59,340 bases of DNA from an uncultured virus (IMG/VR IMGVR_UViG_3300025723_000019) (IMGVR_UViG_3300025723_000019:62001-121340); one strand, 5' to 3'. Shown: positions 14,248 to 40,874, counted from the first letter of the stretch. Numbers and translations: made by a program. The notes: generated by a model not told the origin, from the letters alone.

Positions 14248-14293
14248 GCCATCTCCTAACGATTCATTGCCCATCTAGGGCTTGACTACTGAA

Positions 14294-20185: not shown

Positions 20186-20231
20186 TAGCCTTATCCTGAC
20201 CCTGTTGGTCAGTTGCTCTATCCGGTAGTTA

Positions 20232-20256
20232 GGCCACCCTACGGGGTGGTCTTTCT
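20232..20256 (+). terminator. intrinsic terminator between convergent genes
   Basis: GGCCACCC-TACG-GGGTGGTC then TTTCT. Confidence 0.7.
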
Positions 20257-20446: not shown

Positions 20447-21805
20447 CTACCACTGTCCGTTTCGGGCAACCCAAGCGTCGTACTCGGCTGCCGAGACATT
20501 CATTCCCCGAACGGTCTTGGTGATTGCGTCGTGGGAGCGCAGTTTGCTTCCAAGGGCCTGAACGAGCAGGGCGTTGGCTGTCTTGGCGACTTCGCTGTCC
20601 TTGGCGAGTGAGGACACCAGCACGTTCTTGGCCGGGTCAAGTGCGCCAGTCTCGTCAACGTTGTCGTATCCAAAACCGTTGGGGGAAATGCTGACGCTTT
20701 CAGGGAGAACCATTGCGCTGCGATTCAGCACCATTGTGTAGTTGCGATTGTTGTCGTGATAAGCGTCGTACCCGGCGAGCGCAGGAAGCGAACTGGCAAT
20801 TTGGAAACTTTCAAAGGGCAATGCAATTGCCTTAGCCATTTTTTGGTAGGCGGCTTGTTGCTGCCCGTTTCCACCATAGATTTCGCCACCGTACATTTGA
20901 GCGTCAGCGAAAAGCCGGTTCTTGCTCATTATCGTGTCCCAGCCCGCTGCTCCAAAGGAGTTCGGGATGTCTTGACTTTCCAGCACGTTCGACGGGTTGG
21001 CCAACTTGCTACGGAAGATGCAGCCACCTGCCGGTTCACCAGCGTCTGGCCTAGAGTAATCGGCAGCAGTGTCTTTGGTACTTGATGTGTAAAACGCAGC
21101 ACCGTAGTTTCCACCACCGAACCTTGGCGTTCCAAAATAAAGGGATGACAGTTTGGCTTCTAATCCACTGCTTCCAGCAGTAATGCCGGAGAACAAGCAC
21201 GGGCCGGGGGTTTCAGCAAACTTCGCCTCACTGACCACCGTTGGCTTCTCGGCATAGCCAAGCATCCTCAGAATTGCTGCGCTTTCTGGGTCGGTGTTCC
21301 GATTGTCACGGGCAATGGTGTACTGCTTCCAGTACTCGTCGGGGTTGCACACGATGTGCGTGAAGTTTCTTTGGAAGATGGCTGCCCGTCGCTCGTTTTC
21401 AGCAGGGTCACTAGCAAAGGCCTTTTCCTGTGTCAGCCACTCCGTGAAGTTTTGGACATCCTCGGACAGTTTTTTTGTTGCTTCGGGGGAGATTCCACTT
21501 CCACCTTCGCCAGCGACCCATTGGTTCCCGTGAAAAACGTGACCGTTGACATCCCCCTTTTGGATTTCACCAGTGGCGAGGAACGCCGTCGCAGCATCTT
21601 TAAGTTCCTGCGGGGCCGGAATCCACGACGGCATCTTCGTCATTTTCAGTACGGCTGCCTGCTGGTCTGCGAGGGGTGCGTCAGTGACGTTCAAGAACCA
21701 CAACAGGTCGGGGATGGTGGTGATGAGCGTGTTCATACGCCACAAGTCCCAAGTACCGGTCTTAATCCAGTCTTCGTTCAGGGTGTTTGACGCGTTGGTT
21801 TCCAT
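20447..21805 (-). CDS. tagged protein with a PARP-like ADP-ribosyltransferase-fold domain
   Basis: IQKGDVNGHVFHGNQW; LFSG, GGGNYGAAFYTS, AGYDA, YTMVLNR; paralogous to two domains of the upstream polyprotein. Confidence 0.6.
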   Translation of the reverse strand: METNASNTLNEDWIKTGTWDLWRMNTLITTIPDLLWFLNVTDAPLADQQAAVLKMTKMPSWIPAPQELKDAATAFLATGEIQKGDVNGHVFHGNQWVAGEGGSGISPEATKKLSEDVQNFTEWLTQEKAFASDPAENERRAAIFQRNFTHIVCNPDEYWKQYTIARDNRNTDPESAAILRMLGYAEKPTVVSEAKFAETPGPCLFSGITAGSSGLEAKLSSLYFGTPRFGGGNYGAAFYTSSTKDTAADYSRPDAGEPAGGCIFRSKLANPSNVLESQDIPNSFGAAGWDTIMSKNRLFADAQMYGGEIYGGNGQQQAAYQKMAKAIALPFESFQIASSLPALAGYDAYHDNNRNYTMVLNRSAMVLPESVSISPNGFGYDNVDETGALDPAKNVLVSSLAKDSEVAKTANALLVQALGSKLRSHDAITKTVRGMNVSAAEYDAWVARNGQW

Positions 21806-21814
21806 TGGCTCAGT

Positions 21815-24800
21815 TTACGCGTTTCTACTGACTTGACGGATTCCGTACTGGCTGAATTCGTATCCGCTTGGAAGCACGGTGTCTTTGTCAGACTGCACGG
21901 CTGCAAATTCTGCTCCTGACAGGTTTGCGTTAGCAAGATTTGCACCTTTAAGGCTTACATCTCTAAAGTTTACATCTTCAAGGTTTGCACCTTCAAGATT
22001 GGCTTCCGAAAGGCGTGAGTTGCCAATCTCGGCCTTTGACAAGTTGCACCCAGAAAAATTGGCTTTAATGAAATCGCTTGCTGAAAAAAATGAACCCGAC
22101 AAGTTTGCGCCAGTGAGGTTGGCATTGCTGAAGTTTGCGCCATACCAAACGTGGTTAAGGTTTCCGTTGGAGCCGTTGCCATTCAAAAAAGGAGTGCGGT
22201 CTGTTGAAAAGTCAGCGTTTGTAAGATTTGCCCCTGAAAAATTTGCGTTTTGTGAGGGGGTTTCAAACTTTGCGCCTTGGAGGTTGGCACCCGAAAAATT
22301 AGCGTACTCTGCAATGTCTTTAATTTTGGCACCTTGCAAATCGGCATTGCGAAAATCGTTTTGACCATTGACTTGCCATTTGCCGGGGCCAGCCATTACA
22401 ACAATTTCGTCTTCGTCTAGACAACCCACGCCGGTTCTAGCACACGACAGAACTCGCTCTACTGGGACGGTGCCAGAAATCATAACTTCGCCAAAATGAC
22501 TTGCTTCGGTTGCTGAATAGGCAAACGAAGAAAGCGGGCGAAGTGGCACTTCTGAATTTGTTTTAAAACCTTTTGTCCAATCCGGTGGAGAACTTTGAGA
22601 ACGGAAAGTCATCCCTCGGTACACGGAAACTTCCTTGATTCCAGCAGCCTTGAAGTAATCCTGCGTTGCGTTGTACTGCGCCCGGAGGAAAGCCTTGTAG
22701 AAGTCACCGTTTTCACTGACAAGTTTGTCAACTTGTGCCTGTGTTGCTGTTGCTAAATTTGTAATTTGGTCTTGTTGTGCTGAATCAAGTTTCCCCCTAC
22801 TGCTGTAGCCGAGGAATTGCCTTGCTGCTTCTTTGTAATCCCAGTCAAAATGTCCAGCAAGACCGAACTCCTTGGCTGCTAATTGCTGCATTGCCAATGA
22901 CAGTGGAGAAGTGTCGTTCGACGTGTTGGCCCATTCCGAGACGAGTTTGCTGACGGCTGCTGCCCGTTCCTCTGGCTGCCTGCTGCCTAACGCTTCATCC
23001 CATTCGGGGCCGAGGCGAGAAGCAATGTCCTTGGCGATTGCTGCTTTGCAGTCACCACGAACCTTCATATCCCACTTGGGGCCTGTTAGACCCTTTTCCA
23101 CCGCTTCTGCGACCTTGCGACTGTTGAGGTACACGGAAACGTTGTCCCCCGGCTTGCTCTCGGCTTGGGAGATTTCACTGCCACCCTCTCCACCTGTCCA
23201 CTGGTTTCCGTGAAAGGGATGGCCTTCAACGTCGCCCTTTTGTACGGGCTTTTCGTATGGTTGAACCGGCACGTTGGTCAGTTCGTTGCCTACTGCGCCC
23301 TTTTCATCAAAGTTAAACTCGTTAAAGGATTTGTCACTACCAATGGTGATGTTCTTCGGGAGAACCAAAGCACCACGGTTTAACAGCATCGTGTAGTCAT
23401 CGTTTTTAATACCGACTTGCGGTACGGTCAGGGCATCAAAGCCAGCAAGTGCTGGAACGGCACTCATCCTCATTGAGTAGTCGGTCATTACTGCGTCAAT
23501 TTTGCCGTAAGCCGACGCTTGGTCTGGGGTGATGCCCTGTTTCATCAAGGGCAGCAGTGAAATACCTTCTGGCCTCTCGTAGGCCAAGCCGTCATAAGTC
23601 CAAGTGTTCGATGTGCTTTCCAACTTTGCTCTAAAAATGCAACTGTCTCCACCTCTACCAATTCTCGTGTACCCCACCGGGGTGTACTTCTCAGGGGAGG
23701 TGTAGAACGCTGCTCCGTAAAAACCACCACCGTAGCGAGGAACCTTCCCGTAGTACAACTGGGACATCTTGGTTCCGACTGAAGTTGAGCCGGTCTTGAT
23801 GCCGGAGAACAGGCACGGAGTTGGTACCTTGGCGAATTCTTCTTCGCTGACAACCCTTGGCTTTGCTCCGTATCCAAGCATCTGAAGAATTGCTGCGTTC
23901 ATAGGGTCGTTGCTTCGTTGCTCTTTTGCAATTTTGAATTGCCTGTTGTATTCGCCGGGGTTGCACAACACCATTGTCAAATTCTTGGCGAACAACGCCC
24001 TACGAGCGTCATCTTGCGACTTGTCTCCAAGTTGGCCTGAGATTGGGATGTCCTTTGAAGCGTTTTCGACGTACTGGCGAATTTCAGCAGTCTCCTTTGG
24101 TGACAACTCGCTTTTGAACTCTAGTTCGGGTGCTGGTGTCTCGGCCTTTGGTGGGGTTGGCTCTGGCTCTGGCTTTGGTTCTGGCTTCGGCTCTGGTGGT
24201 GATGCGACAGGCTTAGGGGCTTTTGGAACCCTAGGAGCCTTCGGAGCCTTTGCTTTGGGTGCCTTTGGTGCCTTCGCCGGGGCCTTGGCTGCCGAACTCG
24301 GCTTTCCACCACGGGTGTTGAAGCCACCCCCGACGGTCAACCACTGATTACCGTGAAACTGGTGGCCGGGAACGTCACCTTTGGAAATCGCTTCCTCTGG
24401 TGGGCCGTCAAGTTCAGTCAGAAGTGGGTTGCCCTCAATCCAGTTCTCCAAGAACGCCGATGCTGGAATCCACTGTCCCTCAACGTAAGCCTCTGCGTCA
24501 GTTCCGTCGTATCGGTAGTAGGCGAACGGCTTTCCTTCGGTGGTGGAATACTCGTAGTACGTCCACGCAGAAGCCTTGATACTCCGGGTGCCGATGTCTT
24601 CCACGCCAGCAGGAATGGAAACTTTGGCCCACATTTTCACCATCTTGGCCTGACCCTTTATGTAGGCAGGGTCTTTTGGATTCAGGTCACGGATGCGCTC
24701 GTAGATTCCGTGGGTCTTCGTGGCCATTGCTGCTGATTCCGGGGTGTGGAACTGCACCTCAAACATTTGGTTCTTGATGGGGTCGCGGAACAGGCCGTTG

Positions 24801-27800
24801 ATGCCTTTGTAGGAGTTGTGAGGGTCGGTGTTGAAGTAGTTGCGAATGGCAATGGTTTCATAGCCTTCCTTACGGAGGTCTGCCAAAGCCGATTTCACTC
24901 CGTCACTGAACTTCTTCTCATCCAACGCCAAGGTGTAGCGAATTGAATCCTTGACCGCCAGCGATGCCTGCTGTTCGGCTTCGGACTTGGGGCCAACGAA
25001 GTCTCGTGCGTCAAGGGCAATCTTGCGAGCCAGCGAATCTGCGCTTTTCAGCACCTTGTCTGGTTTAATGCGCTGCGCCCCTACTTCGGTAGCAGTCTCG
25101 GCAATCTCTTTGGTGATGCCCGGTTCGTTCTTCGCTGCCCTGCGATGCAGGGCTGAAGCCAAGAACGTTGCTACTTGGATGCCATTCGTGTACTGGTTCC
25201 CGTGGAACAGGTGTCCAACGAGGTCGCCTTTCTCAACTTTGTCGGGCAACGGGACAGGGACATCCTTCAACCCATCTCGGTTTCCAGCAATTGGATTGGG
25301 TAAGGCACCCCCTTCTCCAAAGTATGATTCTTTCATATTTACGGAAACTGTGGTGTTTTCAGGCAGAATCATCGAACTGCGATTCAACACCATTGTGTAG
25401 TTGTTCGTAGTGTCGTGGTAAGCGTCGAAACCCGCAAGTGCTGGGAGAGTACTGTAAATTTCATAACCACCAAATGCGTCTTCTAGATTAGGAAATGCCT
25501 CTCCTATAGACGCAAGAGTTTTTTGTTGTTCTGGTGAAAAGTGTGCTTCGCCGGGAATTTCGTTTATAAACGACCTTTCAATGTAGGCAGCAGTTTCATT
25601 GCTCAGCAAGTCGCTATTATGCAGATATGGTTGCTGGTTACTCGGCCTGTCCTTTTGATGGTAATCAGATTGCCAAACATTGGCAGGATTGTCTAATTTG
25701 CAACGAAAAATGCAACCATTTGTCCCTTTGTAATTAGCATAACCGGCTGGGGTCAACTTGCCCGGAGAGGTGTAAAACGCTGCTCCATACACGCCACCAC
25801 CATAACGGGGGACATCCCCGTAGTACATTTGCGACAACTTCGTCATAATGCCACTGCTGCCGTCCGTAAGGCCAGAATAAAGAACCTGTCCCGGCGTATT
25901 GGCAAACTGCTTTTCACTGAGTACAGTTGGCCTCTCGGAGTAGCCGAGCATTTGGAGAATTGCTGTACTTGACGGGTCGCTGGACTTGTTTTTTACAGCA
26001 ATGTCACGCTGTCGCAAGTATTCGGTGGGTTGCAACAGCAAGTTGGTGAGGTTTTCTTGAAGCGTTGCCCTTCTTTGTTCGGGGTTGTCTTCCTTCTTGA
26101 ACACCACTTTGTCGGTGTACTCGGAAACAAGTTTCTTGATGAGCGCAGTTGTCGCCGGTGGAAACTCGCTCTTTGCAGCGATATGCCCAATTGAGGCCGA
26201 CTTCGGGGCCGGGGCCAACGGTGCCGAGGGCTTTTCCACCTTGGGTTCTGGCTTTGGAGCAGGCTGAGGCTGAGGGGCAGGCGGTGGTGATGGGGCAACA
26301 GGCTTTGGCTTGGCTACTTGTGCAGCCTTTGGTGGCTTGGCTGCTGGGATGAGTGGCTTCCGGGGCTTTGGAGCCTTGGCAGCCTTCGGAGCCTTTGCTT
26401 TTCCACCAGAAGCATTGAACTTGCCACCGACAGTGACCCACTGGTTCCCGTGGAATTGGTGACCATCCACGTCGCCCTTTTGGACATCCGACTGCTGATA
26501 GTCGTATTGCGCTCGGCCACCGGCGAAGCAGGGCCGGATGTCGCCATCAGATTTCACTACATCATCGGACATCCCCGCTGTTGATGGGTCTGACCACTTC
26601 TCTGGGAGCAGTGCGCCCTTCTGCTCTGGGAATCCACCACCGAGTTGGGTCATCACGGAGTTTTGACCACGAGTTGCAGTGGTCATTGCCTGACGAGCGA
26701 GTGGGCCATACATTGAGGCGTGGCTGGCCCACGCCGCTTCTTCACCATTCCTGTCGAAGTTGCGCCCAGTGGCAGCGTGTCCAAAAGCGTCGTGGACAGC
26801 ACGGAATTCTTCGATTTCCCGGTTGGTGACGAACGGGTGGCCACCAGTGCTACTGGCAGACAGAACGGCCAAGTGATGGTTGTCGTGAACGTCTGCTGCC
26901 ATTTCAGCAGCATCCTTGTACGGGTCTTCCTTGACTACTTCGACCTTGACCCCAAGGGTCTTGGTTAGGTACTCAAATTGCTGATGGGTTTCCTTGACGA
27001 ACTCTCGGTAGGCAGCACGAGTGGATTCATCCACAGACGGCAGTGCAACGTAGTCCTTGGCGATTTCCAAAGCCCGTGACGGGTTGACTTTCACCTTGGA
27101 GTAGTCAATGTCGGGTCGCTGCAAGCCGACGCTCTTGGCGTATTCGGCTGCGCCCTTAGCAAGTTCGGCGTTTCCACCAGTCCATTGGTTGCCTCTGAAC
27201 GGATGTCCCGGCTCGTCGCCCTTGACAACGATTCGGTCTGCCCCCACAACGGATTTCACTACCGTGGCGAACTTGGCCAAGGTTTGGAAAGCCGCGATGA
27301 GTTGAGACAAGTTCTGCATCATTGTCTCGTGCTTGTCGCCCATTCCAATCTGGTGGAAGTCAATGGCGAGGTTTGCCAACTTCGGCTGGAGAATGAGCAG
27401 CGATTCTGGTGATACTCCGTTGTTCCAAAGGTCGCTAACGAAATCAGGCTTTAGAACACGGGGCCGGAAGTTGCACAAGGCGTGGTCAATGCCCACGATG
27501 CGCCCGTCGGGGGTGGAAATCCAATTCTTGGGCCGACGGTCTGCATTGGCGGTGAGGTAGTCGAACAGTTTCAGTGCTGTTCCCTGAGCGTTCTCCGGCA
27601 ACTCGGTCTGCCCGGCTTCTTCACCAGTCTGGCCGACGATGAACGGCATAATGACGGTCTTGGCACCAGAGCCGTAGAGGTGGCAGTCCCTAACCGGAGC
27701 GTTCATTGTTTCGCCCACCAGCGATGCCAAGTACTCCTGCGCTGCCAAGATTTCAGCAGGGTAGAGCCTGCCGGTCTTGTTGCCAACCCAGTCCTTCATC

Positions 27801-28986: not shown

Positions 28987-29007
28987 ACCATTTCACCCAT
29001 TTAAAGA

Positions 29008-30153: not shown

Positions 30154-30458
30154 TAGTCAACTGTCCACGTCGTAGGCTCGTCGGTGGCGAACATCAGTCC
30201 GTTGCTCCAACCGTTCAGGTAGTCGTAGATTTCACTGTCCGTGAAGTTGTCCATCCCGTCGTTGGCTGCACGGTCACGGATGGCCTGCACCATATTGGCT
30301 GCGGTTCCCTCATCGGCAGTCAGAACGCCGTTTTCCAGCGTGGCAGTCCCGTAGCAACCGTTTTCGGGCATCGAAACGTTGTAGAAGTAGAGCATCTTGG
30401 CTTCGGGAGCCGGGGTTGCGTCTTTCTTCAGGTTGGTGAAAATGTCTCTAGCCTTCAT
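30153..30458 (-). CDS. hypothetical acidic protein
   Basis: 101 aa; GGAG RBS; coupled to the kinase gene. Confidence 0.6.
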   Translation of the reverse strand: MKARDIFTNLKKDATPAPEAKMLYFYNVSMPENGCYGTATLENGVLTADEGTAANMVQAIRDRAANDGMDNFTDSEIYDYLNGWSNGLMFATDEPTTWTVD

Positions 30459-30466
30459 CGCTGCTC

Positions 30467-32842
30467 CTATTTGACGTAGTTCTTCGGTGACTGGCCGAAC
30501 CCAAGGTAAAGGCTACCAGTCGGGGTTGGAGGTGGTGATACTGGCTTCTGGCCGTTCACGAGTTGCCAACGGTTGTCAATGGGGCGTGAGCAGGTAGAGC
30601 AGACGTACACCGGCGCACCGGTCACGAACTGGCCGTTGAACGAACCGTCTGCGTTTCTACCAATCCACTGCTCTGGCACCCTGACAGTGTTCTGATGCCC
30701 TGAAGCGCAGTGAGCCGTAAAGAGGGCGTTGTAAGGGTCGAATCGAACGATTCCACCTTTGGAATGTTGGTTGCCTCGGAAGACGTGACCCTGCAAGTCC
30801 CCCTTGAAGAACAAGTACTCGGAAAGGAGCGTCGAAGTGATGAAGTCCAGTGCCTTCTTGGTTGCCGTCGGCTTCCCTTGCCCTTGGTTCTCGGCGTTGT
30901 TGGCGTTAGCCCACTGGGTGGTGAGTTTCAACGCTTCGCCGTGGTTCACCGACAGTCGGTAGACAGGCATCTTGGCTCCGTTGTGGAAGTGGATGCCAAC
31001 TGCTGCTGCCCAAGTGTGGTGACCGTCAAGGACGTAGCCATCTTTGGAAATGAGAATCCTCATCTTGTCCGGGATGGCACTGTCCTTGAAAGACCGGAAG
31101 ATGGCAGCAGATTTCACTGCAAACACTTCCTTCTGCACGGGCTTCAAGGTAGTTGGGTCAACGTCTTCCTTGGTTGCCGTCACGCCGTTGTTCTTCTCCA
31201 AGTCGCTGAGGAACTGTGGGCGTTGTTCGGTTTCCACCTGAGGCATATCCACTCGTGCGATGCCCAGACCGTCCTTGCCCATCAACCGTGTTCCGTCAAT
31301 GCGAAGTTCCGTAATGTCGGACTTCAGGAACTCGTGGCCGATTCCACCCTTCATCCCCTCAAAAAAAGTTTCCAAGTTCTTCTCGTCAATGACGGGTTGC
31401 TTCCCGTCGTTCAGGCTTTTCAGCACTTTGACGGCAAACTGCCTTCTGTCTTCCCTTGTATCGCCCTTTGGAGTGAGAACTCGTTCTCCCAAGTCTTGGC
31501 TCGTGGGGTTTGGCTTCACGCCTTCCAGTGGTGATTTATTGTCCGGGGCAGTGTTGCCTTCGCCACCTGTCCACTGATTCCCACGAAAGGGGTGGCCGGG
31601 GTCATCTCCCTTAGTGAGAGCGAGTTGGCCCGTGTTGGTGCTGATGAAGTCCTTGTTTCGTTCCCACGACTTGTCGGCCTGTGCGCTGGCTGCTGCTGCC
31701 TTCGCTGCTGATGCTGGAACAATTTTGAAGTTTTTCCCAGCCCGCAGGTACTTTTCGATAGCATCTGCCGTTGCTGAATTGGCTGAGTAGGCCCGCCACT
31801 GGTCACTGGCGAGCGACGAGAGGAACCTAGCCTTGTCGCTTTGCAAGCCTTCTGGGACGTTATGGATGGATGAGACGATTTGCTTCCAACGGTCTTGGTG
31901 AATGTCGGCAATGTCTCTGGCTTCGTTGATGAGTGGGCCTGCCGATGCCGGGTCAATGTAGGTCTTCTTGCTCAGTTTGGAAGACAACTTTTCAGCACGG
32001 CCTGACGCTTCTCCACCCGTGAACTGATTTCCGTGGAAGATGTGTCCGAGGAAGTCGCCCTTTTGGATTTCACTGCCCACAACCGACTTGGCCCACGAGT
32101 AGCCAGCATCGCCACCCCACGCATACCACGCCACCTTGCCGGGGCTTGGCTCATCCCAGTGTGGTGAATCCTTGTCGCCCTGATGACGGTCAAAATAGGC
32201 CTTCATACGCTTCAGGGTGTCCATAGACACAGCGTGGCCGTTGGCGAGGTCTGAGGCTCGTTTACGGCCCACTGAGGTGAATCCGTCGCCAGCCTTTCCA
32301 TCCTTCATCCACGCCAAAGCCTTCTTCGCTGCTTCTTGAACGCCCTTTGGAGGGGTAAAGGATTCTGACTTTGCTACAGGCTTCCTGTAGGTTCCACCAC
32401 GACGCTTGTACTCTTGGACAACCCAGCCGTTTGCGACTGCTGATGGGTAGACATCGAACTTCTTCTTTGCGTCTGCCTTGACCCGGCTGTAGAGTTTCTT
32501 GTTCGCTGGCTCGCCCTTGCGGTCAGAAATGATGCCCGTGTAGTCGGTATCGTCATCGGCTTTGGAGATTTCACTTTCGGCGTGGCCTGCTGGCTCCCCG
32601 GTTGCTCCAATATGACGCAGTTGGCAAAAGCCTTCGGGGTTGTCAATATACTTTCCAGCAATAGCGACGCATTGCTCAAAGTCTCCGGGCTGGCCCCAGT
32701 CAATCTGGCCATCAGCACCGTCTTCGTACCAGTCAATTAAGCCAGAAGCATCTCCGGCCTTGTGGATTTCAAATGTACGAGCGAACTTGACCCACGAAAG
32801 AATTTGACCATCGGAAGACATAAGTTCTCCTAGAAATAGCAA
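30467..32842 (-). CDS. multi-domain tagged protein: several small phage-head domains plus a ParB/Srx-like domain
   Basis: Three tags; IDWGQPGDF..C; YPSAVANGWVVQEYKRRGG; KRMKAYFDRH..AWGGDAG; LKPVQKE..ILISKDGYVLDGHHTWAA. Confidence 0.75.
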   Translation of the reverse strand: MLFLGELMSSDGQILSWVKFARTFEIHKAGDASGLIDWYEDGADGQIDWGQPGDFEQCVAIAGKYIDNPEGFCQLRHIGATGEPAGHAESEISKADDDTDYTGIISDRKGEPANKKLYSRVKADAKKKFDVYPSAVANGWVVQEYKRRGGTYRKPVAKSESFTPPKGVQEAAKKALAWMKDGKAGDGFTSVGRKRASDLANGHAVSMDTLKRMKAYFDRHQGDKDSPHWDEPSPGKVAWYAWGGDAGYSWAKSVVGSEIQKGDFLGHIFHGNQFTGGEASGRAEKLSSKLSKKTYIDPASAGPLINEARDIADIHQDRWKQIVSSIHNVPEGLQSDKARFLSSLASDQWRAYSANSATADAIEKYLRAGKNFKIVPASAAKAAAASAQADKSWERNKDFISTNTGQLALTKGDDPGHPFRGNQWTGGEGNTAPDNKSPLEGVKPNPTSQDLGERVLTPKGDTREDRRQFAVKVLKSLNDGKQPVIDEKNLETFFEGMKGGIGHEFLKSDITELRIDGTRLMGKDGLGIARVDMPQVETEQRPQFLSDLEKNNGVTATKEDVDPTTLKPVQKEVFAVKSAAIFRSFKDSAIPDKMRILISKDGYVLDGHHTWAAAVGIHFHNGAKMPVYRLSVNHGEALKLTTQWANANNAENQGQGKPTATKKALDFITSTLLSEYLFFKGDLQGHVFRGNQHSKGGIVRFDPYNALFTAHCASGHQNTVRVPEQWIGRNADGSFNGQFVTGAPVYVCSTCSRPIDNRWQLVNGQKPVSPPPTPTGSLYLGFGQSPKNYVK

Positions 32843-32906
32843 GTGCCACTACTTTATCCCAGACTTCGGGATTTCAGTAGTGGCACTGCTACGACAATGT
32901 GTGGAT

Positions 32907-34214
32907 TTACTGGCCAGCAGCCTTGCGACTTGCGAGGTCGGCTTGGTACGCAGCACCAGCCTTCAGGTCAGTACGGATGCGGTCAGCCTCGCCGTAGTGG
33001 AAGCCTTGGGACTGGACACCGGCAGGCATATTCTTGCCCGACTTCACGTCCGGGTGGTCAGCGTGTTCCTTCAGAACCGTGCTGATTCCGTAGTGTGCGC
33101 CAGCACCCTTTTCAAAGTGGCCCTTGGATTCCAAGAACTTGGCAGCAGCAGCAGCGTGTTGGCCAGCAGCCTTCAGCGCACGACCATCGGCCATTGCCTT
33201 GACACCGTTAGCGAGGTGGCCTTCGGCAGCCTTGGCGTAGCGAGCCATCTTGGACTTCCAGCCTTCCTTGATGCCACGAGCAGAGGTGGAAACGCCACCG
33301 GTGTACTGGTTGCCGTTGAACGGGTGACCGGGCTGTGCGCCAGAACCCTCGCCACCCTTGGTGAAGATGTAGTTCTGGTAGGCAGCCGACTTTTGGAAGT
33401 CACGGGTAAGCAACGCCTCGGTGCTGAAAGCGTTCTTCATCATCGGGTGTTCCGGGTTGTCCGGGTAGTCGTAAATCGAACCCAGAACCATTTCGTCAGA
33501 GACGGCAGCAGCGCCCTTGCAGGTGGGGCAAGATTCCTCGCCGTGCCCCATACAGGATGGGCAGAGGTTCCTCAGCGCAGCCGGGACTGCTTCGTTGTAA
33601 GTATCGGCCATCGCCGCGTCCTTTCGGAGTGATTTGGTGGTGGAATCTGACCAAGATTCGGGAAGTTGGTCAGTCGCATTCAGGGCCTTTGCCTGTGCGA
33701 TGATGTGCGCCTTGACCGCATCTGGGTTCTTGGCACGACCATACGACGAGATGGCGTTCTTCAGGTCGCCAACCGTCTTGATTGGGTAGGAGCCGTCGGG
33801 CATAGCCTTACCCTTTTCAGCGAGGTCTTGACGCTCCGTGTCCGAAACTTCACGCTTGGCGATGTCACGAAGACCTTCCAAAGCAGACTTGACGAGCGAC
33901 AGTTCGTCAACAGCCTTTTCAGCAGCCTTGTCAGCGTCACGGTAGCCAGCGAGCGTGTTGTTGTAAATTGAGCGCAGTTCTTCGCGGTTCGATGCGCCCT
34001 TCTCAACGGCAGTGAAGTAGGCGATTTCAGCGGCCTTCATCTGCTCGGTGGCCTTCACAAGACGGAAGTTGGCGTTGTCAACTGCTGAAAGAGCCTCAAC
34101 TTCCATACGGGCAGCCTTGGCAATCTGGTCGCCAGCGATGCGCCCAGCCACCTCGTCACGGCCCTTTTGGTAAAAGGTCACAACGTCTGGCGTGGTGTTT
34201 GGAACTTGAATCAT
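32907..34214 (-). CDS. tagged protein: coiled coil, AMPDGSYPI domain, CxxCxGxG knuckle, His/Ala helices
   Basis: LAEKGKAMPDGSYPI...GRA...LPESW; CPSCMGHG..CPTCKG; FTKGGEGSGAQPGHPFNGNQY. Confidence 0.7.
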   Translation of the reverse strand: MIQVPNTTPDVVTFYQKGRDEVAGRIAGDQIAKAARMEVEALSAVDNANFRLVKATEQMKAAEIAYFTAVEKGASNREELRSIYNNTLAGYRDADKAAEKAVDELSLVKSALEGLRDIAKREVSDTERQDLAEKGKAMPDGSYPIKTVGDLKNAISSYGRAKNPDAVKAHIIAQAKALNATDQLPESWSDSTTKSLRKDAAMADTYNEAVPAALRNLCPSCMGHGEESCPTCKGAAAVSDEMVLGSIYDYPDNPEHPMMKNAFSTEALLTRDFQKSAAYQNYIFTKGGEGSGAQPGHPFNGNQYTGGVSTSARGIKEGWKSKMARYAKAAEGHLANGVKAMADGRALKAAGQHAAAAAKFLESKGHFEKGAGAHYGISTVLKEHADHPDVKSGKNMPAGVQSQGFHYGEADRIRTDLKAGAAYQADLASRKAAGQ

Positions 34215-34269
34215 ACGAGAAATCCTTTCGCGTCTTTAGAAAGACTACACCGAGAATTGGAAATACTTA

Positions 34270-34737
34270 CTAGCCTTCTTCGTGCAGTATGTCGTGGAGG
34301 GGGTGGTCTTTCGGAAGACCGCCTGCGTACTTGTTCCCTTGGAAAGCGTGACCCTGCGTAATGTCGGGGCTACCCGCACCACCACTACCAAGACCACTGG
34401 TGTGGTACGACGAATCAGGCCTGCTTGGTGAAACGTCCGGCGTACCCATTTGACCCATTGGGCCTTCGGCGTGGCCGACCTTTCCACTACCTGCATCCGG
34501 GGTACCCTCACGGTATTGGCGGCCGGGGTCGTTGTAGCGACTGACCATTGCGGCCCAACGGTCACGTCCAGCATCGCCTTGACGGTGCAGTTCGGGGTTA
34601 GAAGTGGTGTTCGGGCCACTGCCGGAACCCTGCGTGTACTGGTTGCCGTGGAACTCGTGGCCAGCCATATCCTTGATGACATCGTAGCCAAAGGACTTCA
34701 AAATCCACTCTGCGATTTCTGCGTTGGAAACAGTCAT
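34270..34737 (-). CDS. small Gly-rich protein with two tag variants
   Basis: VIKDMAGHEFHGNQY and QGHAFQGNKY. Confidence 0.7.
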   Translation of the reverse strand: MTVSNAEIAEWILKSFGYDVIKDMAGHEFHGNQYTQGSGSGPNTTSNPELHRQGDAGRDRWAAMVSRYNDPGRQYREGTPDAGSGKVGHAEGPMGQMGTPDVSPSRPDSSYHTSGLGSGGAGSPDITQGHAFQGNKYAGGLPKDHPLHDILHEEG

Positions 34738-34751
34738 TTCACTGCCCTTTC

Positions 34752-35057
34752 TTAGATTTCCGAAATGCCCACGGAAATCGTGGCGTTAGTTGCAATCCCG
34801 TTGATTTGTCCACTGAACTGATTGGAAAACCAACTGGAACTTGGTTGTACTCCGATTCCAGCACCCGTGGCTGCCGTGCCACCGAGAGAGAGCCAGAGAA
34901 TGTTGCCAGCCGTGCTGGAACCGTTTGTAATCCAAACGCCCTGACGTTGCTGGTTGGCGACCAAAAGCGTGGTTCCACCAGAAGCAGTAGAGCAAGAGAC
35001 GCTACTGCCCGGTGTGTTTGCCCACAGCGAAGTTTGGTTTGGTGAAGTAGTGGCCAT
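34752..35057 (-). CDS. small beta-rich virion-type protein
   Basis: LLVANQQRQGVWITN...LWLSLG...GIGVQP pattern. Confidence 0.55.
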   Translation of the reverse strand: MATTSPNQTSLWANTPGSSVSCSTASGGTTLLVANQQRQGVWITNGSSTAGNILWLSLGGTAATGAGIGVQPSSSWFSNQFSGQINGIATNATISVGISEI

Positions 35058-35060
35058 TTA

Positions 35061-36134
35061 TTAGTACGTCACACGGCTATTTGCTCGTTGGCCTGCCTTC
35101 ATCGTGTCTTCAGTCAGTGCAGCAGCAGCGTGGCTAGCAGCCTCGGCGTGGTCAAGTCGTGACTTCTCCCAAGCGCCGGGATGGACGGTGTTACTGAATG
35201 GCGCTGCGTCAATGTGGGCCTGTGCAGCAGCGAAATGGGCTTGTGCAGCAAGTTCGGCACCACGAATGCCATCTTTGACCATCTGGCTTGTGGCCGATGC
35301 TGGGTCAGCCTTGGCATCTTCGGCAGCCTTCAGGAGTTCTTTGCCAATAGCGATGTGTCTATCAAGAATACTCTGATGAATACTGGTCTGGGGAACGCCT
35401 GCTCGCTCATTAGCACGAATGTCACTTGCTGCCGTCGCTACATTGCGCGCATTTTGCCAAGGAGCGAGGTCGTTGGGGCCATCACCACGGCCACCGCCAG
35501 TGGCGTACTGGTTCCCCTCAAAAGGGTGGCCAGCCTGTGCGCCACTGCCGGGGCCACCCTTCGCCAGAAAGTAAGGTGCGCCACTGGGAAGTTGGATATC
35601 AGGAGTTTGCCATCCCAGTGCAGCAGTGGTTTGTGGGCCAGAAGCAGCGACAGTTGCCTTTGCAGCAGCGTTGCTCGCAGCAGAAACTTGGGAAGCGGTC
35701 GGCTTCTTCTCGTCAAGACCCAAGCGTCCACCCCACTCACCCTGAGCCTTTAGCACGGTTTCAGAAGCAGCGAGGTGCGCTGAAGAAGCCTTGTCGTGGA
35801 GTTGCGCTTCCTTTTCCATTTGCTTTGCCAGCGCAACGTTGCCCATCCCATTGAGGGCAACTGCATTGGCTTGCTCGTGAAGATATTTTGCCATCTTGTT
35901 GTGGTAGCCAGCGTGGTCAACGTGAGCCTGAGCGATGTCCTTTGCCGTGTATGGTGAAATGTTCCCTCGGTTCTTCGTGACGAACTGGGCCAGACGAGTT
36001 GCCGTGTCCTGTGCGCTACCTTGGGTGTATTGGTTCCCACGAAACTCGTGTCCCGGAAGGTCACCTTTGAGGATTTCAGTGAGTGACTTGCCGATTGGGT
36101 CAAGTGCGTCTGGGTGGAATGGGTTCTGGGTCAT
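35061..36134 (-). CDS. tagged His/Ala-rich helical protein
   Basis: ILKGDLPGHEFRGNQY and LAKGGPGSGAQAGHPFEGNQY; AHFAAAQAHIDAA. Confidence 0.7.
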   Translation of the reverse strand: MTQNPFHPDALDPIGKSLTEILKGDLPGHEFRGNQYTQGSAQDTATRLAQFVTKNRGNISPYTAKDIAQAHVDHAGYHNKMAKYLHEQANAVALNGMGNVALAKQMEKEAQLHDKASSAHLAASETVLKAQGEWGGRLGLDEKKPTASQVSAASNAAAKATVAASGPQTTAALGWQTPDIQLPSGAPYFLAKGGPGSGAQAGHPFEGNQYATGGGRGDGPNDLAPWQNARNVATAASDIRANERAGVPQTSIHQSILDRHIAIGKELLKAAEDAKADPASATSQMVKDGIRGAELAAQAHFAAAQAHIDAAPFSNTVHPGAWEKSRLDHAEAASHAAAALTEDTMKAGQRANSRVTY

Positions 36135-36142
36135 TTTTTGTC

Positions 36143-36601
36143 CTAACCGAGTGAGGCTTGGAGTTGCCAAGCCCATTTGTCGTGCATTTCGATTCGGCCA
36201 GCGAGGAAGTTTGCAATTCCCTGCTTACCAGTATTGCTAGCGATTTGGAACGCCGAGTTCAGGCTTTCCAGCACACCGTTGTTTACTGCGATGAGGTCGG
36301 TCACGAGCGTCGTGTGGTCGTAATCGGCAACCGGGATGTCCGACACCGAAGCGATTCCAGCAAGGTCAGTCAACCGGAAAGGGGCGAACACGCCGACCTT
36401 TCGGATGCTTTCACCAAGACCGTCAAGGCTTTCCCACACGTCGTTGTAGATTTCCTCAAACTTTGCGTGGTACTGGGGGAAGTCGGTGCCGACGATGTTC
36501 CAATGAAAAGCGTGGACGCGGTGATACATCACAGTGGCATCAGCGAGACAAGTCGCCAACGCCACCGGAAGTGTCACTGAGCCATCCTTTTCAACCAGCA
36601 T
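36143..36601 (-). CDS. dps: Dps family ferritin-like DNA-protection protein
   Basis: HAFHWNIVG.DF..YH.KFEEIY, D.L.E.IR, HDKWAWQL. Confidence 0.9.
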   Translation of the reverse strand: MLVEKDGSVTLPVALATCLADATVMYHRVHAFHWNIVGTDFPQYHAKFEEIYNDVWESLDGLGESIRKVGVFAPFRLTDLAGIASVSDIPVADYDHTTLVTDLIAVNNGVLESLNSAFQIASNTGKQGIANFLAGRIEMHDKWAWQLQASLG

Positions 36602-36603
36602 TA

Positions 36604-37194
36604 CTAAGCCGATTCTGCCTGCGGGATGGCACCGGAGATGGCAGCACTCATACGGTGTGCGCCGATTTCACTCTCGTTGTTCATTGCCGTGGTTGCAGCC
36701 TTGACTGCCTCACTGTGGCTCGCCTGAGCCTTCATTGCAAGAAGCGAGAGGGTGTGGGCATCAGCACCCGAACGGAGCGCAGAAGCGTAGGCACGAACGT
36801 CCTTGTTGGCGATTTCAGCAGCGTCGCCAGCGTGGTGGGCAGCAGCGTAGCCAGTCTTCGCAGTCTGGTGAAGCATCGGGTCTGCGCCGTTGGTGTTGAG
36901 CCGAGCAGCAGCCCAAGCGTAGTGACGAGCAGCAGTGTTGAAGTGGCGCATTGCGACACCGTGGCTACCACGCATCAACGCAGCCTGAGCAGCAGCCATA
37001 TGTGACGATGCAGCGTCAAGGTGCTGACCGTGGCTCCACGACTTTTCGCCTTCTGGGTTGTCGTGGCTCCGAGACTGTGGGACACCACCGGTGGTGCCGT
37101 TGCCACGGAATGGGTGTCCCTCGTGTTCACCCGAACCGGGGCCACCCTTCGCCAGAACCAGCCATTCCTCAATTTGCGAATCGTAATCCGACAT
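36604..37194 (-). CDS. tagged His/Ala-rich helical protein
   Basis: LAKGGPGSGEHEGHPFRGNG; HLDAASSHMAAA. Confidence 0.7.
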   Translation of the reverse strand: MSDYDSQIEEWLVLAKGGPGSGEHEGHPFRGNGTTGGVPQSRSHDNPEGEKSWSHGQHLDAASSHMAAAQAALMRGSHGVAMRHFNTAARHYAWAAARLNTNGADPMLHQTAKTGYAAAHHAGDAAEIANKDVRAYASALRSGADAHTLSLLAMKAQASHSEAVKAATTAMNNESEIGAHRMSAAISGAIPQAESA

Positions 37195-37249
37195 TTGGAC
37201 TTCCTTTACTAAGTCGTGGTTGCAATAATGCTACCAATGGTTTTGCTTT

Positions 37250-38869
37250 TCAGTAGTTGTAGTGAGGTGCGCCACTGGGGAAGGACGAAGACACTGGAGC
37301 AAGCCCCGTGTCCCCTGCCAAATTGAGTGCTTGGTCAGTAGCCTCATTTGCGCCACGGCTTGCTCTAACGGCTGGGAAAGCGGCGTCAATACTTTCTTGA
37401 CCAATTCCCTTTTCAGCAGTCACTTTGGCTGCTTCTTCGTGTGCCTGAGCCGCCTCTGCGTGAAGTTCAGCGGCGTGACGCAAAGAACTGGAGGTAATGG
37501 GGTGCTGGCTATCTAAGGCTTTTTGAGCAAGGTCGCGCAACTTGCTAGACATATCACGGTGTAGCGATGCTGCGATTTCGTGCTGTGCCGACACACTCTC
37601 TGGGTCGGCTTCGTCATCGTGCTGAAGATGCAAGTTGTTTGCAATCTTTAGGTGGTCGTTCGCACTGCGTGCTTCGGCATACTGATTACCGTGGAATTCG
37701 TGGCCGGGAACGTCTCCCTTTTGCACCTTGACTTCGCTCTTGATAACTCCAGTACGGCTACCTTCCAAACGCTGTGTGAGCAAACCTACAACGGCATCGT
37801 GAGAAGCAAGTTTCGCTTGGCTATCAGCAACATCTTGCTTTGCCTCATAACGCCCATCGCCAACTTCTTGTAAGGCGGAGGGGATGCGGTTTAGTTGAGC
37901 AAGATAGTCCTTACTCAACTGCAAATCCTGTTCCAATTCGCCTCTTTGAGCGTCAATGTGTTCCTCAACGCTTTTAGATGGGTCTTTCTCAATGCGTTGG
38001 GCTAACCGACCAGCCAACAAGTATCGCCGCTTGTTCTCTGCGGCGTTTTTACCACCACGCTTGTCGTATGCGGAAGCGATGCTTCGCAGTGCTGTGGATG
38101 CCGCGCCGTGGGTGTATTGGTTTCCGTGAAACTCGTGTCCAACGACATCGCCTTTGGAAACATTGGCTGCTTCCTCGGCTTTCACCTCGGTATACTTGGC
38201 TCGCATACGAGCGCAGTCGGCTTCTGACTTGCAGGGCGGGTCGCCGTGCATTGCGTGCCAATCGTCGTGGTCTTGGTCGTGACGGATGACATCAGCAAGA
38301 CTTTCGCCCATACTCTTGGCAACGCCCGTGTCGAACGAGGTGCGGTTAAACGCTTGCTGCGACATCAAGAACGCACGGTGGGCTGCTCGCCACACCTTGT
38401 TCTCGGTATTCCACCTCGCCGGGAGAATCTGTCCGTGCTTCCCATCCCAGTGCTGGTCAACAACCACTGGGGCCATCATAAAAGCAACTCGCTGGGCATC
38501 CAAATGTGCGCCGTAGGCATCACCGTGGCCGGAAATGGCTTGGATGTAGCCAGTGGGGTTGGCTGCTTGGAGTTGCATTGCGAACTGACGGTGCTGTTCG
38601 GCCAAGTCCCCGTGCTTCTGGGCGAGAACGATGTAGTCCTCGTCAACAAGCGGAGGAACGCCGTTTTGGTGAAGCGTCGAATTCTCGTGGATGGCCACAA
38701 TCATTCGGGCATCGTTCATCAGTTGCCCGGCTGCTGCAACGTAAGGATTGGAAGCGTCAAAGTTTTCCGGCAGTTGGGCGTTTGGGTAGAGCGAACCCAA
38801 GTCCTTGGCCACCTTCACCCAATTGTTCTCGCCAAGGATTTCACCAACAGACTTGCAAAACTCTGACAT
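37250..38869 (-). CDS. tagged multi-segment helical protein
   Basis: VSKGDVVGHEFHGNQY and VQKGDVPGHEFHGNQY; HDDWHAMHGDPPC; HAAELHAEAAQAHEEAA. Confidence 0.7.
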   Translation of the reverse strand: MSEFCKSVGEILGENNWVKVAKDLGSLYPNAQLPENFDASNPYVAAAGQLMNDARMIVAIHENSTLHQNGVPPLVDEDYIVLAQKHGDLAEQHRQFAMQLQAANPTGYIQAISGHGDAYGAHLDAQRVAFMMAPVVVDQHWDGKHGQILPARWNTENKVWRAAHRAFLMSQQAFNRTSFDTGVAKSMGESLADVIRHDQDHDDWHAMHGDPPCKSEADCARMRAKYTEVKAEEAANVSKGDVVGHEFHGNQYTHGAASTALRSIASAYDKRGGKNAAENKRRYLLAGRLAQRIEKDPSKSVEEHIDAQRGELEQDLQLSKDYLAQLNRIPSALQEVGDGRYEAKQDVADSQAKLASHDAVVGLLTQRLEGSRTGVIKSEVKVQKGDVPGHEFHGNQYAEARSANDHLKIANNLHLQHDDEADPESVSAQHEIAASLHRDMSSKLRDLAQKALDSQHPITSSSLRHAAELHAEAAQAHEEAAKVTAEKGIGQESIDAAFPAVRASRGANEATDQALNLAGDTGLAPVSSSFPSGAPHYNY

Positions 38870-40760: not shown

Positions 40761-40874
40761 CTATCGCTTTTGGGAGCGAACCGGTGCTGATACGGTGCCT
40801 CGTGCCGAGCCAACCCTGATTGCTGGCTTCTTCTTTGGCTTTGACGCTTTCACCTTGCGAATATGAATCGTCAC
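40761..40874 (-). CDS. 37-aa highly basic peptide (below ORF-track cutoff)
   Basis: GTGA overlap with the portal stop; MTIHIRKVKASKPKKKPAIRVGSARGTVSAPVRSQKR. Confidence 0.45.
   Translation of the reverse strand: MTIHIRKVKASKPKKKPAIRVGSARGTVSAPVRSQKR

Follow-up and report, generated by a model that had tools for sequence, protein, structure and literature searches.

We analysed a 59,340-nt window, the whole stretch of DNA under study, which is the right half (positions 62001-121340) of a complete 121,340-bp phage record. A block of genes that share a short peptide tag lies in it between the portal and protease genes and the scaffold and capsid genes, on a single strand with minimal gaps. The head-assembly genes around the block are the following.

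40871..42529, minus strand, Mu-type portal protein (Pfam Portal_Mu, 1.7e-31; phrog_113, 2e-84)
38877..40703, minus strand, 608-aa ORF with a C-terminal XkdF-type prohead protease (Peptidase_S78_2 at residues 467-587, 1.3e-13)
38943..39305, minus strand, XkdF (Peptidase_S78_2) protease domain (Pfam; D, H and S columns invariant in the alignment)
13471..14274, minus strand, probable scaffold (phrog_13547), adjoining the capsid gene in relatives too
11606..12685, minus strand, major capsid protein (phrog_1005, 5.1e-95)

The portal is 52% identical to Arthrobacter phage portals. The protease ORF comes after it and has a long N-terminal extension with a poly-Ser/Asp tract, and the tagged block begins 8 nt downstream of this ORF, as expected from the initial annotation, which had placed the block directly behind a prohead protease. 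The tag is absent from the sequences of the phage's own protease, scaffold and capsid protein. A short site that recurs ahead of the tag, [VIL]xKG as judged by eye, was present twice in the protease ORF and 0 times in the scaffold, capsid protein and portal. A promoter and terminator scan of the tagged block gave no excess over shuffles.

The tag is a linear stretch of about 15 residues with the consensus [VIL]-x-K-G-D-x-x-G-H-x-F-[HR]-G-N-Q-[YW]. A regular-expression search of the six-frame translation for GH.F.GN gave 19 matches, all on the minus strand between 21521 and 38140 and none elsewhere in the 59,340-nt window. The tag cores found in this way are listed here.

38117..38140, minus strand, GHEFHGNQ
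37682..37705, minus strand, GHEFHGNQ
37096..37119, minus strand, GHPFRGNG
36030..36053, minus strand, GHEFRGNQ
35508..35531, minus strand, GHPFEGNQ
34639..34662, minus strand, GHEFHGNQ
34330..34353, minus strand, GHAFQGNK
33306..33329, minus strand, GHPFNGNQ
32024..32047, minus strand, GHIFHGNQ
31574..31597, minus strand, GHPFRGNQ
30767..30790, minus strand, GHVFRGNQ
30085..30108, minus strand, GHDFHGNQ
28918..28941, minus strand, GHEFHGNQ
27185..27208, minus strand, GHPFRGNQ
26441..26464, minus strand, GHQFHGNQ
25193..25216, minus strand, GHLFHGNQ
24344..24367, minus strand, GHQFHGNQ
23201..23224, minus strand, GHPFHGNQ
21521..21544, minus strand, GHVFHGNQ

The same 19 copies in 10 ORFs, at positions agreeing within 3 nt, had been reported by the initial annotation. 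Mononucleotide shuffles of the window (n = 200) averaged 0.01 matches and never exceeded 1, and the reversed window sequence gave 0. When the five invariant codons were compared between copies, the first and second positions were 100% identical and the third positions 47% identical. Since there are 19 copies against 0.01 expected and third codon positions are free, we conclude that the tag is real and selected as a peptide, which upholds the earlier view that it is conserved as peptide rather than as DNA.

The 10 tagged ORFs span 20447-38869 on the minus strand and carry 1, 5, 1, 1, 3, 1, 2, 2, 1 and 2 tags. They and their untagged neighbors are laid out as follows; HA denotes a His/Ala helical domain.

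37250..38869, minus strand, tagged ORF, 539 aa; tags at residues 244 and 389, an HA domain after each
36604..37194, minus strand, tagged ORF, 196 aa; variant KGGPGSG...GHPFRGN at residue 26, then an HA domain
36691..37050, minus strand, HA domain, predicted four-helix bundle (AF2 model)
36143..36601, minus strand, untagged Dps/ferritin-like ORF within the block (Pfam Ferritin, 4.5e-15; phrog_3636)
35061..36176, minus strand, tagged ORF, 371 aa; tags at residues 42 and 216, HA domains after both, N-terminal NPF...KGD leader
34752..35057, minus strand, untagged ORF, 101 aa; no family in Pfam or PHROGs
34270..34737, minus strand, tagged ORF, 155 aa; tags at residues 26 and 129 (the latter GHAFQGNK)
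32907..34214, minus strand, tagged ORF, 435 aa; tag at residue 296, then an HA domain
30467..32842, minus strand, tagged ORF, 791 aa; tags at residues 266, 416 and 685, DUF5872 at 112-157, phrog_2859 at 469-654
30153..30458, minus strand, untagged ORF, 101 aa; no family in Pfam or PHROGs
29008..30153, minus strand, tagged ORF, 381 aa; tag at residue 16, Pro/Ala/Lys linker, PI3/PI4-kinase-like domain; phrog_3162
27943..28986, minus strand, tagged ORF, 347 aa; tag at residue 16, Pro/Ala/Lys linker, PI3/PI4-/HipA-like kinase domain
21815..28027, minus strand, polyvalent ORF, 2070 aa; five tags (residues 274, 522, 938, 1221 and 1602) at module boundaries
24593..25153, minus strand, small alarmone synthetase (RelA/SpoT-like) module of the 2070-aa ORF (PDB 8vx3 SaSAS, 5.7e-16)
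22388..22645, minus strand, weak DRAT-like (ADP-ribosyltransferase) stretch (Pfam DRAT, 0.0027, under the cut-off)
21893..22138, minus strand, pentapeptide repeats at the C terminus of the 2070-aa ORF (Pfam Pentapeptide, 2e-28)
20447..21805, minus strand, tagged ORF, 452 aa; tag at residue 88, post-tag domain recurring twice in the 2070-aa ORF

The domains behind the window's tags are mutually unrelated, and what is common to them is one short peptide encoded with the head genes. The 2070-aa ORF strings together a kinase-like N terminus, a phrog_3170 module, two copies of the 452-aa-ORF domain, the alarmone synthetase, the DRAT-like stretch and the pentapeptide repeats, which makes it a polyvalent protein by the criterion of 2 to 15 effector/enzyme domains per chain. 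The domain labels given earlier fared unevenly. The RelA/SpoT label held with the 8vx3 match, and this module also matched the C-terminal part of NCBIfam XopAD (6.5e-29, far under the cut-off). The kinase labels lie near the Pfam cut-offs: PI3_PI4_kinase scored 29.1 bits in the 347-aa ORF (cut-off 27.1), where HipA_2 scored 26.2 bits (cut-off 27), and 25.7 bits (1.2e-05) in the 381-aa ORF, under 27.1. The ART-like label is a lead, given by the DRAT match, by PF03496 on the cluster relative P0005, and by an Atlas lead to ART-PolyVal (0.90) for the 452-aa ORF with no Pfam match in the window. For the ParB-like label, Pfam gave no match in the 791-aa ORF. The 15 window ORFs showed no match to MuF (PF04233) at E<=0.01; ART-PolyVal, MuF and ParB are found on tag carriers elsewhere. 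PDB sequence searches gave no match for the phrog_3170 module or the 452-aa-ORF domain, the latter also without a Pfam match, and a marginal chaperonin chain (E = 0.09) as the sole match for the middle part of the 791-aa ORF.

The whole 121,340-bp genome holds 26 tags, 7 of them outside the head block and far from head genes, at 15.5-20.4 kb and 32.8 kb; the motif is thus confined to the block within the window, as had been claimed, but not within the genome. The neighbors of these tags are ParB and SNF2-helicase genes, and a tag also lies between HslV-like and ClpP/crotonase-like genes. Tags at protein N termini are often preceded by a short leader, NPF...LLK..S.YPV, and basic Pro/Ala/Lys linkers come after some tags.

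A 39-nt degenerate tag pattern matched at least 218 stretches in IMG/VR and 2 in 185,579 prokaryote genomes (596 Gb), both on MAG contigs. The tag is almost virus-only, and because it is essentially absent from bacterial genomes, the phages that bear it are not typical prophages. At the protein level, 1987 clusters (50% identity) match the tag at E<=0.001, with up to 9 copies per protein. For the 120 best multi-tag proteins, the medians are position 40 for the first tag, 228 residues for the distance from the last tag to the C terminus, and 187 residues for the gap between tags. The tag precedes modules, in line with the original description of it near N termini or at domain boundaries; a few tags lie 8-20 residues from a C terminus. 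The lineages that bear it differ in portal and capsid families and apparently in hosts, which include that of Xanthomonas phage Rb1 and those of WhiB-encoding actinophage-like genomes. Rb1 is the sole cultured match, through a protein annotated "internal head protein." It was found by tblastn of a 26-aa tag against 50,697 phage records as a single marginal match (E=3, motif present), and the gene cluster that carries its tag also has a DarA-N-like gene and encodes a giant SNF2 ATPase. A tblastn search with the tagged protein P0120 gave no match, so with these searches we found no well-studied cultured carrier. Pfam, NCBIfam and PHROGs have no family model for the tag itself, full-text literature searches on motif spellings returned no paper describing it, and searches of the CTS/MuF and XkdF literature returned nothing on it, which agrees with the earlier remark that it is not a named system.

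In other lineages, the tag is found in one chain with four procapsid-internal parts: the XkdF prohead protease, the scaffold, MuF and the portal. XkdF is joined through a tag to a Zeta/AAA_33 kinase (L068/P0121; Pfam PF14550, PF06414 and PF13671), to an HA domain (L076), to an HA domain and coiled-coil scaffold (L020, L053 and P0133/P0134) and, with more sequence between XkdF and the tag, to a ParB-like domain (L021 and L060). One chain reads tag-GNAT-tag-MuF (L023), and one portal ORF (G001) has 2646 aa and 6 tags. We compared tagged IMG/VR records of at least 43 kb with random records of at least 36.8 kb for the co-occurrence with XkdF-type proteases that the initial annotation had put forward as a check. 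XkdF (PF14550) was present in 14 of 20 tagged and 1 of 20 random records (Fisher p = 4e-5, a value that overstates the link because the 20 tagged records are not phylogenetically independent). Among these records, it was present in 3/3 tagged ones at least 90% complete versus 0/14 complete random ones. Two tagged records gave no detectable XkdF: G001, which has the most tags and is 87% complete, and the complete genome of Xanthomonas phage Rb1. Laroye has XkdF and no tag. The conclusion that the tag is tied to the head-assembly machinery is supported.

We put at roughly one in two the probability that the tag is a loading and processing signal for head cargo, akin to the T4 capsid-targeting sequence (CTS); this reading would entail encapsidation, protease recognition, cleavage and delivery. 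The tag would mark modules built into the procapsid interior, among them kinase-like, alarmone-synthetase, ART-like, GNAT and ParB-like enzymes and the His/Ala four-helix bundle. The head-assembly machinery, most likely the XkdF-type prohead protease, would recognize it, and recognition would draw free-standing tagged proteins into the assembling prohead. The tag would also mark cut sites at which multi-module chains are parted from their anchors (portal, MuF, protease or scaffold) and from each other, and the freed modules would stay beside the DNA inside the head until infection, when they would pass into the host. The earlier proposal of a portable address for interchangeable effectors stands as to a portable, head-linked peptide on interchangeable effector-like modules and is weakened by the 7 of 26 tags outside the head block. 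These tags also count against a simple form of the loading and processing reading, as do the protease-scaffold fusions, in which an address is redundant, and the tags 8-20 residues from a C terminus, where cleavage would release nothing. The two tagged records that gave no XkdF, and the lack of a tag on this phage's own protease, scaffold and capsid protein, likewise speak against it. We suggest, tentatively, the wider claim that a large uncultured group of lytic phages uses the tag as a general, transferable signal for capsid loading and release, by which any tagged protein would be taken into the prohead via the maturation protease and freed inside.

The tag might instead be a cleavage junction with no targeting role, a prohead protease site that separates polyprotein modules anchored to the capsid. 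Its place at module boundaries, directly after XkdF domains and between protease and scaffold (L020 and L053), its co-occurrence with XkdF, and the cleavage of ejection proteins by the giant-phage prohead protease in accounts of SPN3US all fit this idea. However, many tagged proteins are free-standing single modules that lack an anchor and carry the tag 10-30 residues in (27943-28986, 29008-30153, 36604-37194 and the second tag cluster of the genome), and a bare cleavage site would have no evident use there. Some tags are C-terminal, and about 12 conserved residues are much more than the 3-residue sites of T4 and phiKZ-type prohead proteases. When a natural XkdF-tag chain was modeled with AF2 (L068, 215 aa, 24-row alignment), the protease part was of moderate quality and the tag, at pLDDT ~50, was undocked; as weak evidence it may be set against a junction, and it says nothing either way on protease recognition. 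We consider a junction alone unlikely.

Another possibility is that tagged proteins polymerize into a core-like mass inside the head, with the tag as an assembly motif that binds HA bundles or DNA and is not recognized by the protease. A full HA domain comes next in 83 of 303 distinct tag matches and a partial one in 77, HA units are present in the protease-scaffold fusions and in the Rb1 "internal head protein," and the linkers after some tags are basic. Yet 143 of the 303 have no HA domain behind them, and the HA bundle had no structural match in BFVD at E<=0.001. In an AF2 model of the HA domain (56-row alignment), residues 41-160 had pLDDT >90, while the tag part, at ~50, was not packed on its own bundle. 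The tag is thus predicted to be flexible and disordered, as expected for a motif that binds in trans, a point in favor of the loading and processing reading. An assembly motif of this kind seems to us improbable.

The loading and processing reading has also to be weighed against action after injection, in which the tag would dock onto a conserved host factor, act as a degron or mark a site of self-processing that releases effector modules in the new cell. Host-directed effectors are what many modules resemble (alarmone synthetase, kinase-like, ART-like and pentapeptide), and the 7 tags outside the head module fit as well. Against this, tags are part of protease-scaffold fusions and portal chains, whose work is done during assembly, and they occur in phages of apparently different hosts; their absence from cellular genomes indicates that the tag does not mimic a common host motif. 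We give this explanation little credence.

For a loading and processing signal, the closest precedent is T4. The T4 CTS is removed by the prohead protease, which fits the tag's link to a protease. The account in PMC3012670 has the short CTS as the only element common to diverse packaged anti-host proteins (IPI-III and Alt), which it directs into the scaffolding core. The tag likewise places one short peptide on otherwise unrelated proteins encoded with head genes. The CTS occurs once per protein, at the N terminus, and in one phage group, whereas the tag occurs up to 9 times per chain, also internally and sometimes C-terminally, and is far more conserved, across lineages with different portal and capsid families. 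For P1 DarB, a large anti-restriction enzyme injected with the DNA, PMC9024508 reports that the first 30 residues are enough to direct a reporter to the capsid interior; its authors found no consensus among Dar N termini. The tag is, in contrast, one consensus common to thousands of proteins. A likeness to the Dar system is the DarA-N-like gene near the tag of Rb1.

Polyvalent proteins, as outlined by Iyer et al. 2017 (PMC5512222), are multi-domain chains that mix ART, MuF, ParB, kinase, GNAT and similar domains. Their genes lie close to those for portal and terminase, packaging and injection are predicted for the proteins, and metallopeptidase domains are proposed to process them. Tag carriers have the same Pfam families and a phage context, with portal and protease directly upstream of the window's tagged block. 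On 120 tag carriers, a hand count from the domain table gave MuF PF04233 on 10, PF03496 on 8, ART-PolyVal on 6, PI3_PI4 kinase on 5, GNAT on 5 and ParBc on 4; topoisomerase I and Tpt1 are also among the carriers' domains. The string "GNQ" is not in the main text of that paper, and relative to that text the inter-module tag and its XkdF link are additions to the picture. A further likeness is to MuF toxins, seen in the MuF domains of tag carriers, L023 included; in this case, MuF is found only in relatives and not in the window's ORFs. Temperate phages have polymorphic toxins of this kind, whose effector domains are fused to MuF, a protein inside the capsid. Giant-phage prohead proteases cut at short A/S/G-x-E motifs. 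Accounts of these phages (SPN3US and phiKZ type) report that the prohead protease processes many head-internal proteins and that these are ejected into the host; the protease is of another family, and those accounts describe no long conserved tag. Encapsulin cargo-loading peptides and the HK97 protease targeting tail illustrate that a short peptide suffices to load an HK97-fold shell, and their sequences are not known to be related to the tag.

Phage proteins that are packaged and injected reach the host cell ahead of any other weapon, and they are hard to recognize from sequence outside T4, P1, N4 and the giant phages. A conserved tag marking cargo modules would make cargo discovery a motif scan, with about 2,000 clusters already carrying it; if the wider claim is true, such a scan would by itself catalog the proteins that thousands of phages inject. 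The tag would expose a varied effector set (alarmone synthetases, kinases, ARTs, GNATs, ParB-like nucleases, topoisomerase I and Tpt1) and give a handle on how XkdF-type proteases choose their clients. If it is sufficient for loading, it would be a tool for packing chosen proteins into phage capsids.

One tagged ORF lies between the HslV-like and ClpP/crotonase-like genes here and in L013, L044, L052 and L066, and the tag could be a recognition signal of this peptidase pair. The HslV-like family (phrog_1040) is present in 7 of 20 tagged records versus 1 of 20 controls, but in 0/3 complete tagged records, all three of which have XkdF. The HslV-like peptidase was rejected as tag partner on this count, and we regard a role for the pair as extremely improbable. 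The 7 positive records look like left-arm fragments of this phage's relatives.

The tag, a peptide of about 15 residues around the core GH.F.GN, occurs 19 times in the window, always on the minus strand, and the matches are spread over 10 of the 13 ORFs of a block that follows the prohead protease. This reproduces, copy for copy, the 19 tags of the initial annotation. Two hundred shuffles gave a mean of 0.01 matches, and the reversed sequence gave none. Between copies, the five invariant codons never differed in their first two bases, and their third base agreed in 47% of pairs; selection on the tag therefore acts at the peptide level, as the initial annotation had maintained in calling it conserved as peptide rather than DNA. 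The gene order around the block is as follows:

42529-40871 (minus strand): Mu-type portal, first in the minus-strand gene order
40703-38877 (minus strand): 608-aa ORF with an XkdF-type prohead protease (Peptidase_S78_2, 1.3e-13) as its C-terminal 120 residues
38869-20447 (minus strand): 13 tightly packed ORFs, the tagged block, downstream of the protease ORF
between the tagged block and the probable scaffold: methylase, nucleases and other genes
14274-13471 (minus strand): probable scaffold, then a further head protein
12685-11606 (minus strand): major capsid protein, after the further head protein

The source record (121,340 bp), of which the window covers positions 62001-121340, carries direct terminal repeats and is 100% complete according to CheckV. 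Because the window encodes two WhiB-like regulators and a portal with 52% identity to those of Arthrobacter phages, the host is likely an actinobacterium. The three untagged ORFs of the block are two of 101 aa and a Dps/ferritin-like gene in its middle (36143-36601, minus strand; Pfam Ferritin, 4.5e-15). With many of the nearby tagged modules being helical bundles rich in His, one can conceive of a link to the handling of metal or DNA within the head.

The 308 distinct IMG/VR instances gave the consensus [VIL]-x-K-G-D-[VLF]-x-G-H-[PE]-F-[HR]-G-N-Q-[YW]-T-x-G-x-G, in which K, G, D, G, H, F, G, N and Q were set by the search pattern and the other positions were free. The variant K-G-G-x-G-S-G-x-x-x-G-H-P-F-x-G-N has other residues in place of the KGD part, and NPF...LLK..S.YPV often stands ahead of the tag at protein N termini. 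In the best 120 multi-tag proteins (two to seven tags each), the median position is 40 for the first tag, the gap between tags has a median of 187 residues, and a median of 228 residues separates the last tag from the C terminus. From these positions and gaps, the repeating unit is a tag followed by a module; a few tags lie only 8 to 20 residues from the C terminus. Among 303 distinct tag matches from a local profile search, a His/Ala-rich helical (HA) domain comes after the tag in complete form in 83 and in partial form in 77. AlphaFold2, given a 56-row alignment, gave a four-helix bundle for the HA domain (pLDDT above 90); in this model the tag had a pLDDT of about 50 and was not packed on the bundle, as would be expected of a linear motif acting in trans.

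Homologues of the window's portal, capsid protein or protease lie within 10 kb of a tag in 16 of 35 groups of long loci. From the remaining 19 groups, 18 loci (183 ORFs) were scanned with PHROGs. In L020 and L053 the tag lay inside head maturation protease ORFs, in L023 at residue 5 of a MuF-like head protein and in L025 next to a MuF polyvalent protein; L029 has it in five ORFs immediately upstream of the small terminase. ParB/helicase and HslV contexts, as found elsewhere in the window's source genome, also recur among these loci, and the locus of the nineteenth group, L077, has the same gene order as the window. Several chains join the tag to head proteins directly: XkdF, tag and a Zeta-like kinase (L068; protein cluster P0121, with PF14550, PF06414 and PF13671); XkdF, tag, basic linker and a ParB-like domain (L021 and L060); XkdF, tag and a helical bundle (L076); and the same followed by a coiled-coil scaffold (L020, L053, P0133 and P0134). 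In the tag-rich record G001, from which L010, L065 and L342 derive, the portal ORF (2646 residues, in the region of about 37.4-48.5 kb) carries six tags and is followed by about 31 kb of tag-rich ORFs. Four proteins of the procapsid interior thus each occur in one chain with the tag. These same-chain fusions are the strongest argument that the tagged modules are head-internal, as we infer from the gene fusions.

We give a probability of about 0.5 to the reading that fits most of the facts, in which the tag, by analogy with the capsid targeting sequence (CTS) of phage T4 internal proteins, would combine recruitment and processing. The tag would be recognized by the machinery of head assembly, with the XkdF protease as the most likely part; recognition would draw free-standing tagged proteins into the prohead, and the tag would mark the sites at which chains are cut from their anchors and modules from each other. 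If the tag were purely a cleavage junction, single-module proteins that start with it would be hard to explain, and we consider this unlikely. A pure address is hard to square with tags inside protease-scaffold fusions. It is less probable still that the tag serves as an assembly motif of an inner body. PMC3012670 describes the T4 CTS as the only conserved part of diverse internal defense proteins and as sufficient to load foreign proteins, and PMC9024508 reports that an N-terminal signal of 30 residues suffices for the packaged P1 protein DarB, with no consensus among the signals of the Dar proteins.

The initial annotation had proposed a check of whether the tag co-occurs with XkdF-type proteases. 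PF14550 was present in 14 of 20 tagged records of at least 43 kb, including all three that are at least 90% complete, versus 1 of 20 random IMG/VR records of at least 36.8 kb drawn via an arbitrary 14-mer (0 of 14 complete ones; Fisher P = 4e-5, with tagged records that are not independent, several being relatives of the window's phage). Five of the six tagged records without PF14550 are fragments, 35 to 69% complete. The association is not strict: PF14550 was not found in the sixth, G001 (87% complete and richest in tags), or in the complete Xanthomonas phage Rb1, and no tag was found in Arthrobacter phage Laroye, which has XkdF. In a single-chain model of a natural XkdF-tag protein, the tag was not placed. 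An HslV-like peptidase was present in 7 of 20 tagged records versus 1 of 20 random ones; we rejected it as the tag's partner because none of the three complete tagged records has it, and we regard an HslV-related signal as very improbable.

Precomputed Pfam domains on the best 120 tag carriers were counted, and about 70 of the carriers had none.

Pfam domains among the best 120 tag carriers
Phage_Mu_F: 10
ADPrib_exo_Tox: 8
ART-PolyVal: 6
PI3_PI4 kinase: 5
GNAT families: 5
ParBc: 4
PARP: 3
NUDIX: 2
Topoisom_I: 2
Zeta toxin, Tpt1, LigT, SprT-like: present

This repertoire is the same as that of the polyvalent proteins in the portion of Iyer et al. 2017 (PMC5512222) used for comparison. That the tag acts after injection is a reading we hold improbable. 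Within the window, the RelA/SpoT label of the initial annotation stood, as a small alarmone synthetase module (24593-25153, minus strand; PDB 8vx3 SaSAS, 5.7e-16). The two kinase-like modules scored near Pfam cut-offs, and the ART-like label, for the domain of ORF 20447-21805 that has two more copies in the 2070-aa ORF, is a language-model lead to ART-PolyVal (0.90). Pentapeptide repeats also occur (Pfam, 2e-28). The alarmone synthetase module has a further match, to the C-terminal 190 residues of a type III effector model (NCBIfam XopAD/skwp; 6.5e-29, far under the model cut-off).

In IMG/VR, a degenerate 39-nt tag pattern has at least 218 matching stretches, and single contigs among the matches listed carry as many as about 24 tags; prokaryotes (one genome per species; 185,579 species, 596 Gb) gave two stretches, both on MAG contigs. 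The motif is therefore not common in non-phage proteins, a point that the initial annotation had raised, and practically no tag-bearing phages occur as prophages. Against 1.84 billion proteins, a profile of the window's 19 tags matched 1987 cluster representatives (E ≤ 0.001), of which 453 reached 1e-10; one protein held nine copies. The only cultured carrier found was Xanthomonas phage Rb1 (PQ569993.1, locus L217), in which an "internal head protein" (5808-9473, 1222 aa) has one tag at residue 739, with an acidic stretch before it and a His/Ala-rich segment after it. The gene adjoins a DarA-N-like gene, an M12B-like peptidase and a giant SNF2 ATPase.

The class to which these proteins belong is already known, namely packaged polyvalent or MuF-linked effectors and capsid-targeting peptides. 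No description of the tag peptide was found in literature outside subscription journals searched by motif spellings, the main text of PMC5512222 has zero occurrences of "GNQ," and Pfam, NCBIfam and PHROGs hold no model for the tag.

Several features of the head genes and linkers were also recorded. In the protease ORF (38877-40703, minus strand), the N-terminal extension is 460 residues long, belongs to no known family and contains a Ser/Asp run of about 70 residues at about 39900-40150. Some cargo linkers are strongly basic (Pro/Ala/Lys), and pairing by charge with this run is a speculation. One tag sub-type, GNQW-[VLI]-x-x-x-G-[GK]-F-N-x-x-G-G-K, precedes a Pro/Ala/Lys-rich basic linker of 60 to 90 residues (24280-24340, 26380-26440, 28850-28915 and 30020-30080, minus strand). 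Between the XkdF domain and the tag, L021:6590-8209 and L060:1265-2911 share a short conserved stretch (...VMREF.RG.LKSSSGK.V...KQAMAIA.SE...). The cargo block separates the protease gene of the window from the scaffold gene, about 24.6 kb away, and the N-terminal part of the probable scaffold (13471-14274, minus strand; ...GVDRPAH...VVMK) resembles the SLVD.PA strand after the GFSIGG motif in the XkdF-scaffold fusions L020, L053 and P0133. A hairpin scan of the region as a whole was not above shuffles; the best hairpin (20231-20252, plus strand; 9 pairs, 6 of them G-C) is at the point of convergence between the minus-strand block and a transglycosylase-like gene on the plus strand.

Counted over the whole genome, there are 26 tags, seven of which lie outside the window. 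Six of these (15.5-20.4 kb, both strands) surround a ParB-like gene and an SNF2 helicase, and the seventh (32.8 kb) is flanked by a ClpP/crotonase-like gene and an HslV-like peptidase gene. The set of six forms a second cluster, of five tagged ORFs on both strands around the ParB-like gene (G000:C1:15146-21007, in the whole record), and this cluster lies next to the helicase (983 aa); similar contexts occur in L028, L034, L043 and L044. The other site is a trio (G000:C1:31441-33454) of the ClpP/crotonase-like gene (phrog_1128), one or two small tagged ORFs and the HslV-like peptidase gene (phrog_1040). A RusA gene follows this trio, which recurs in L013, L044, L052 and L066.
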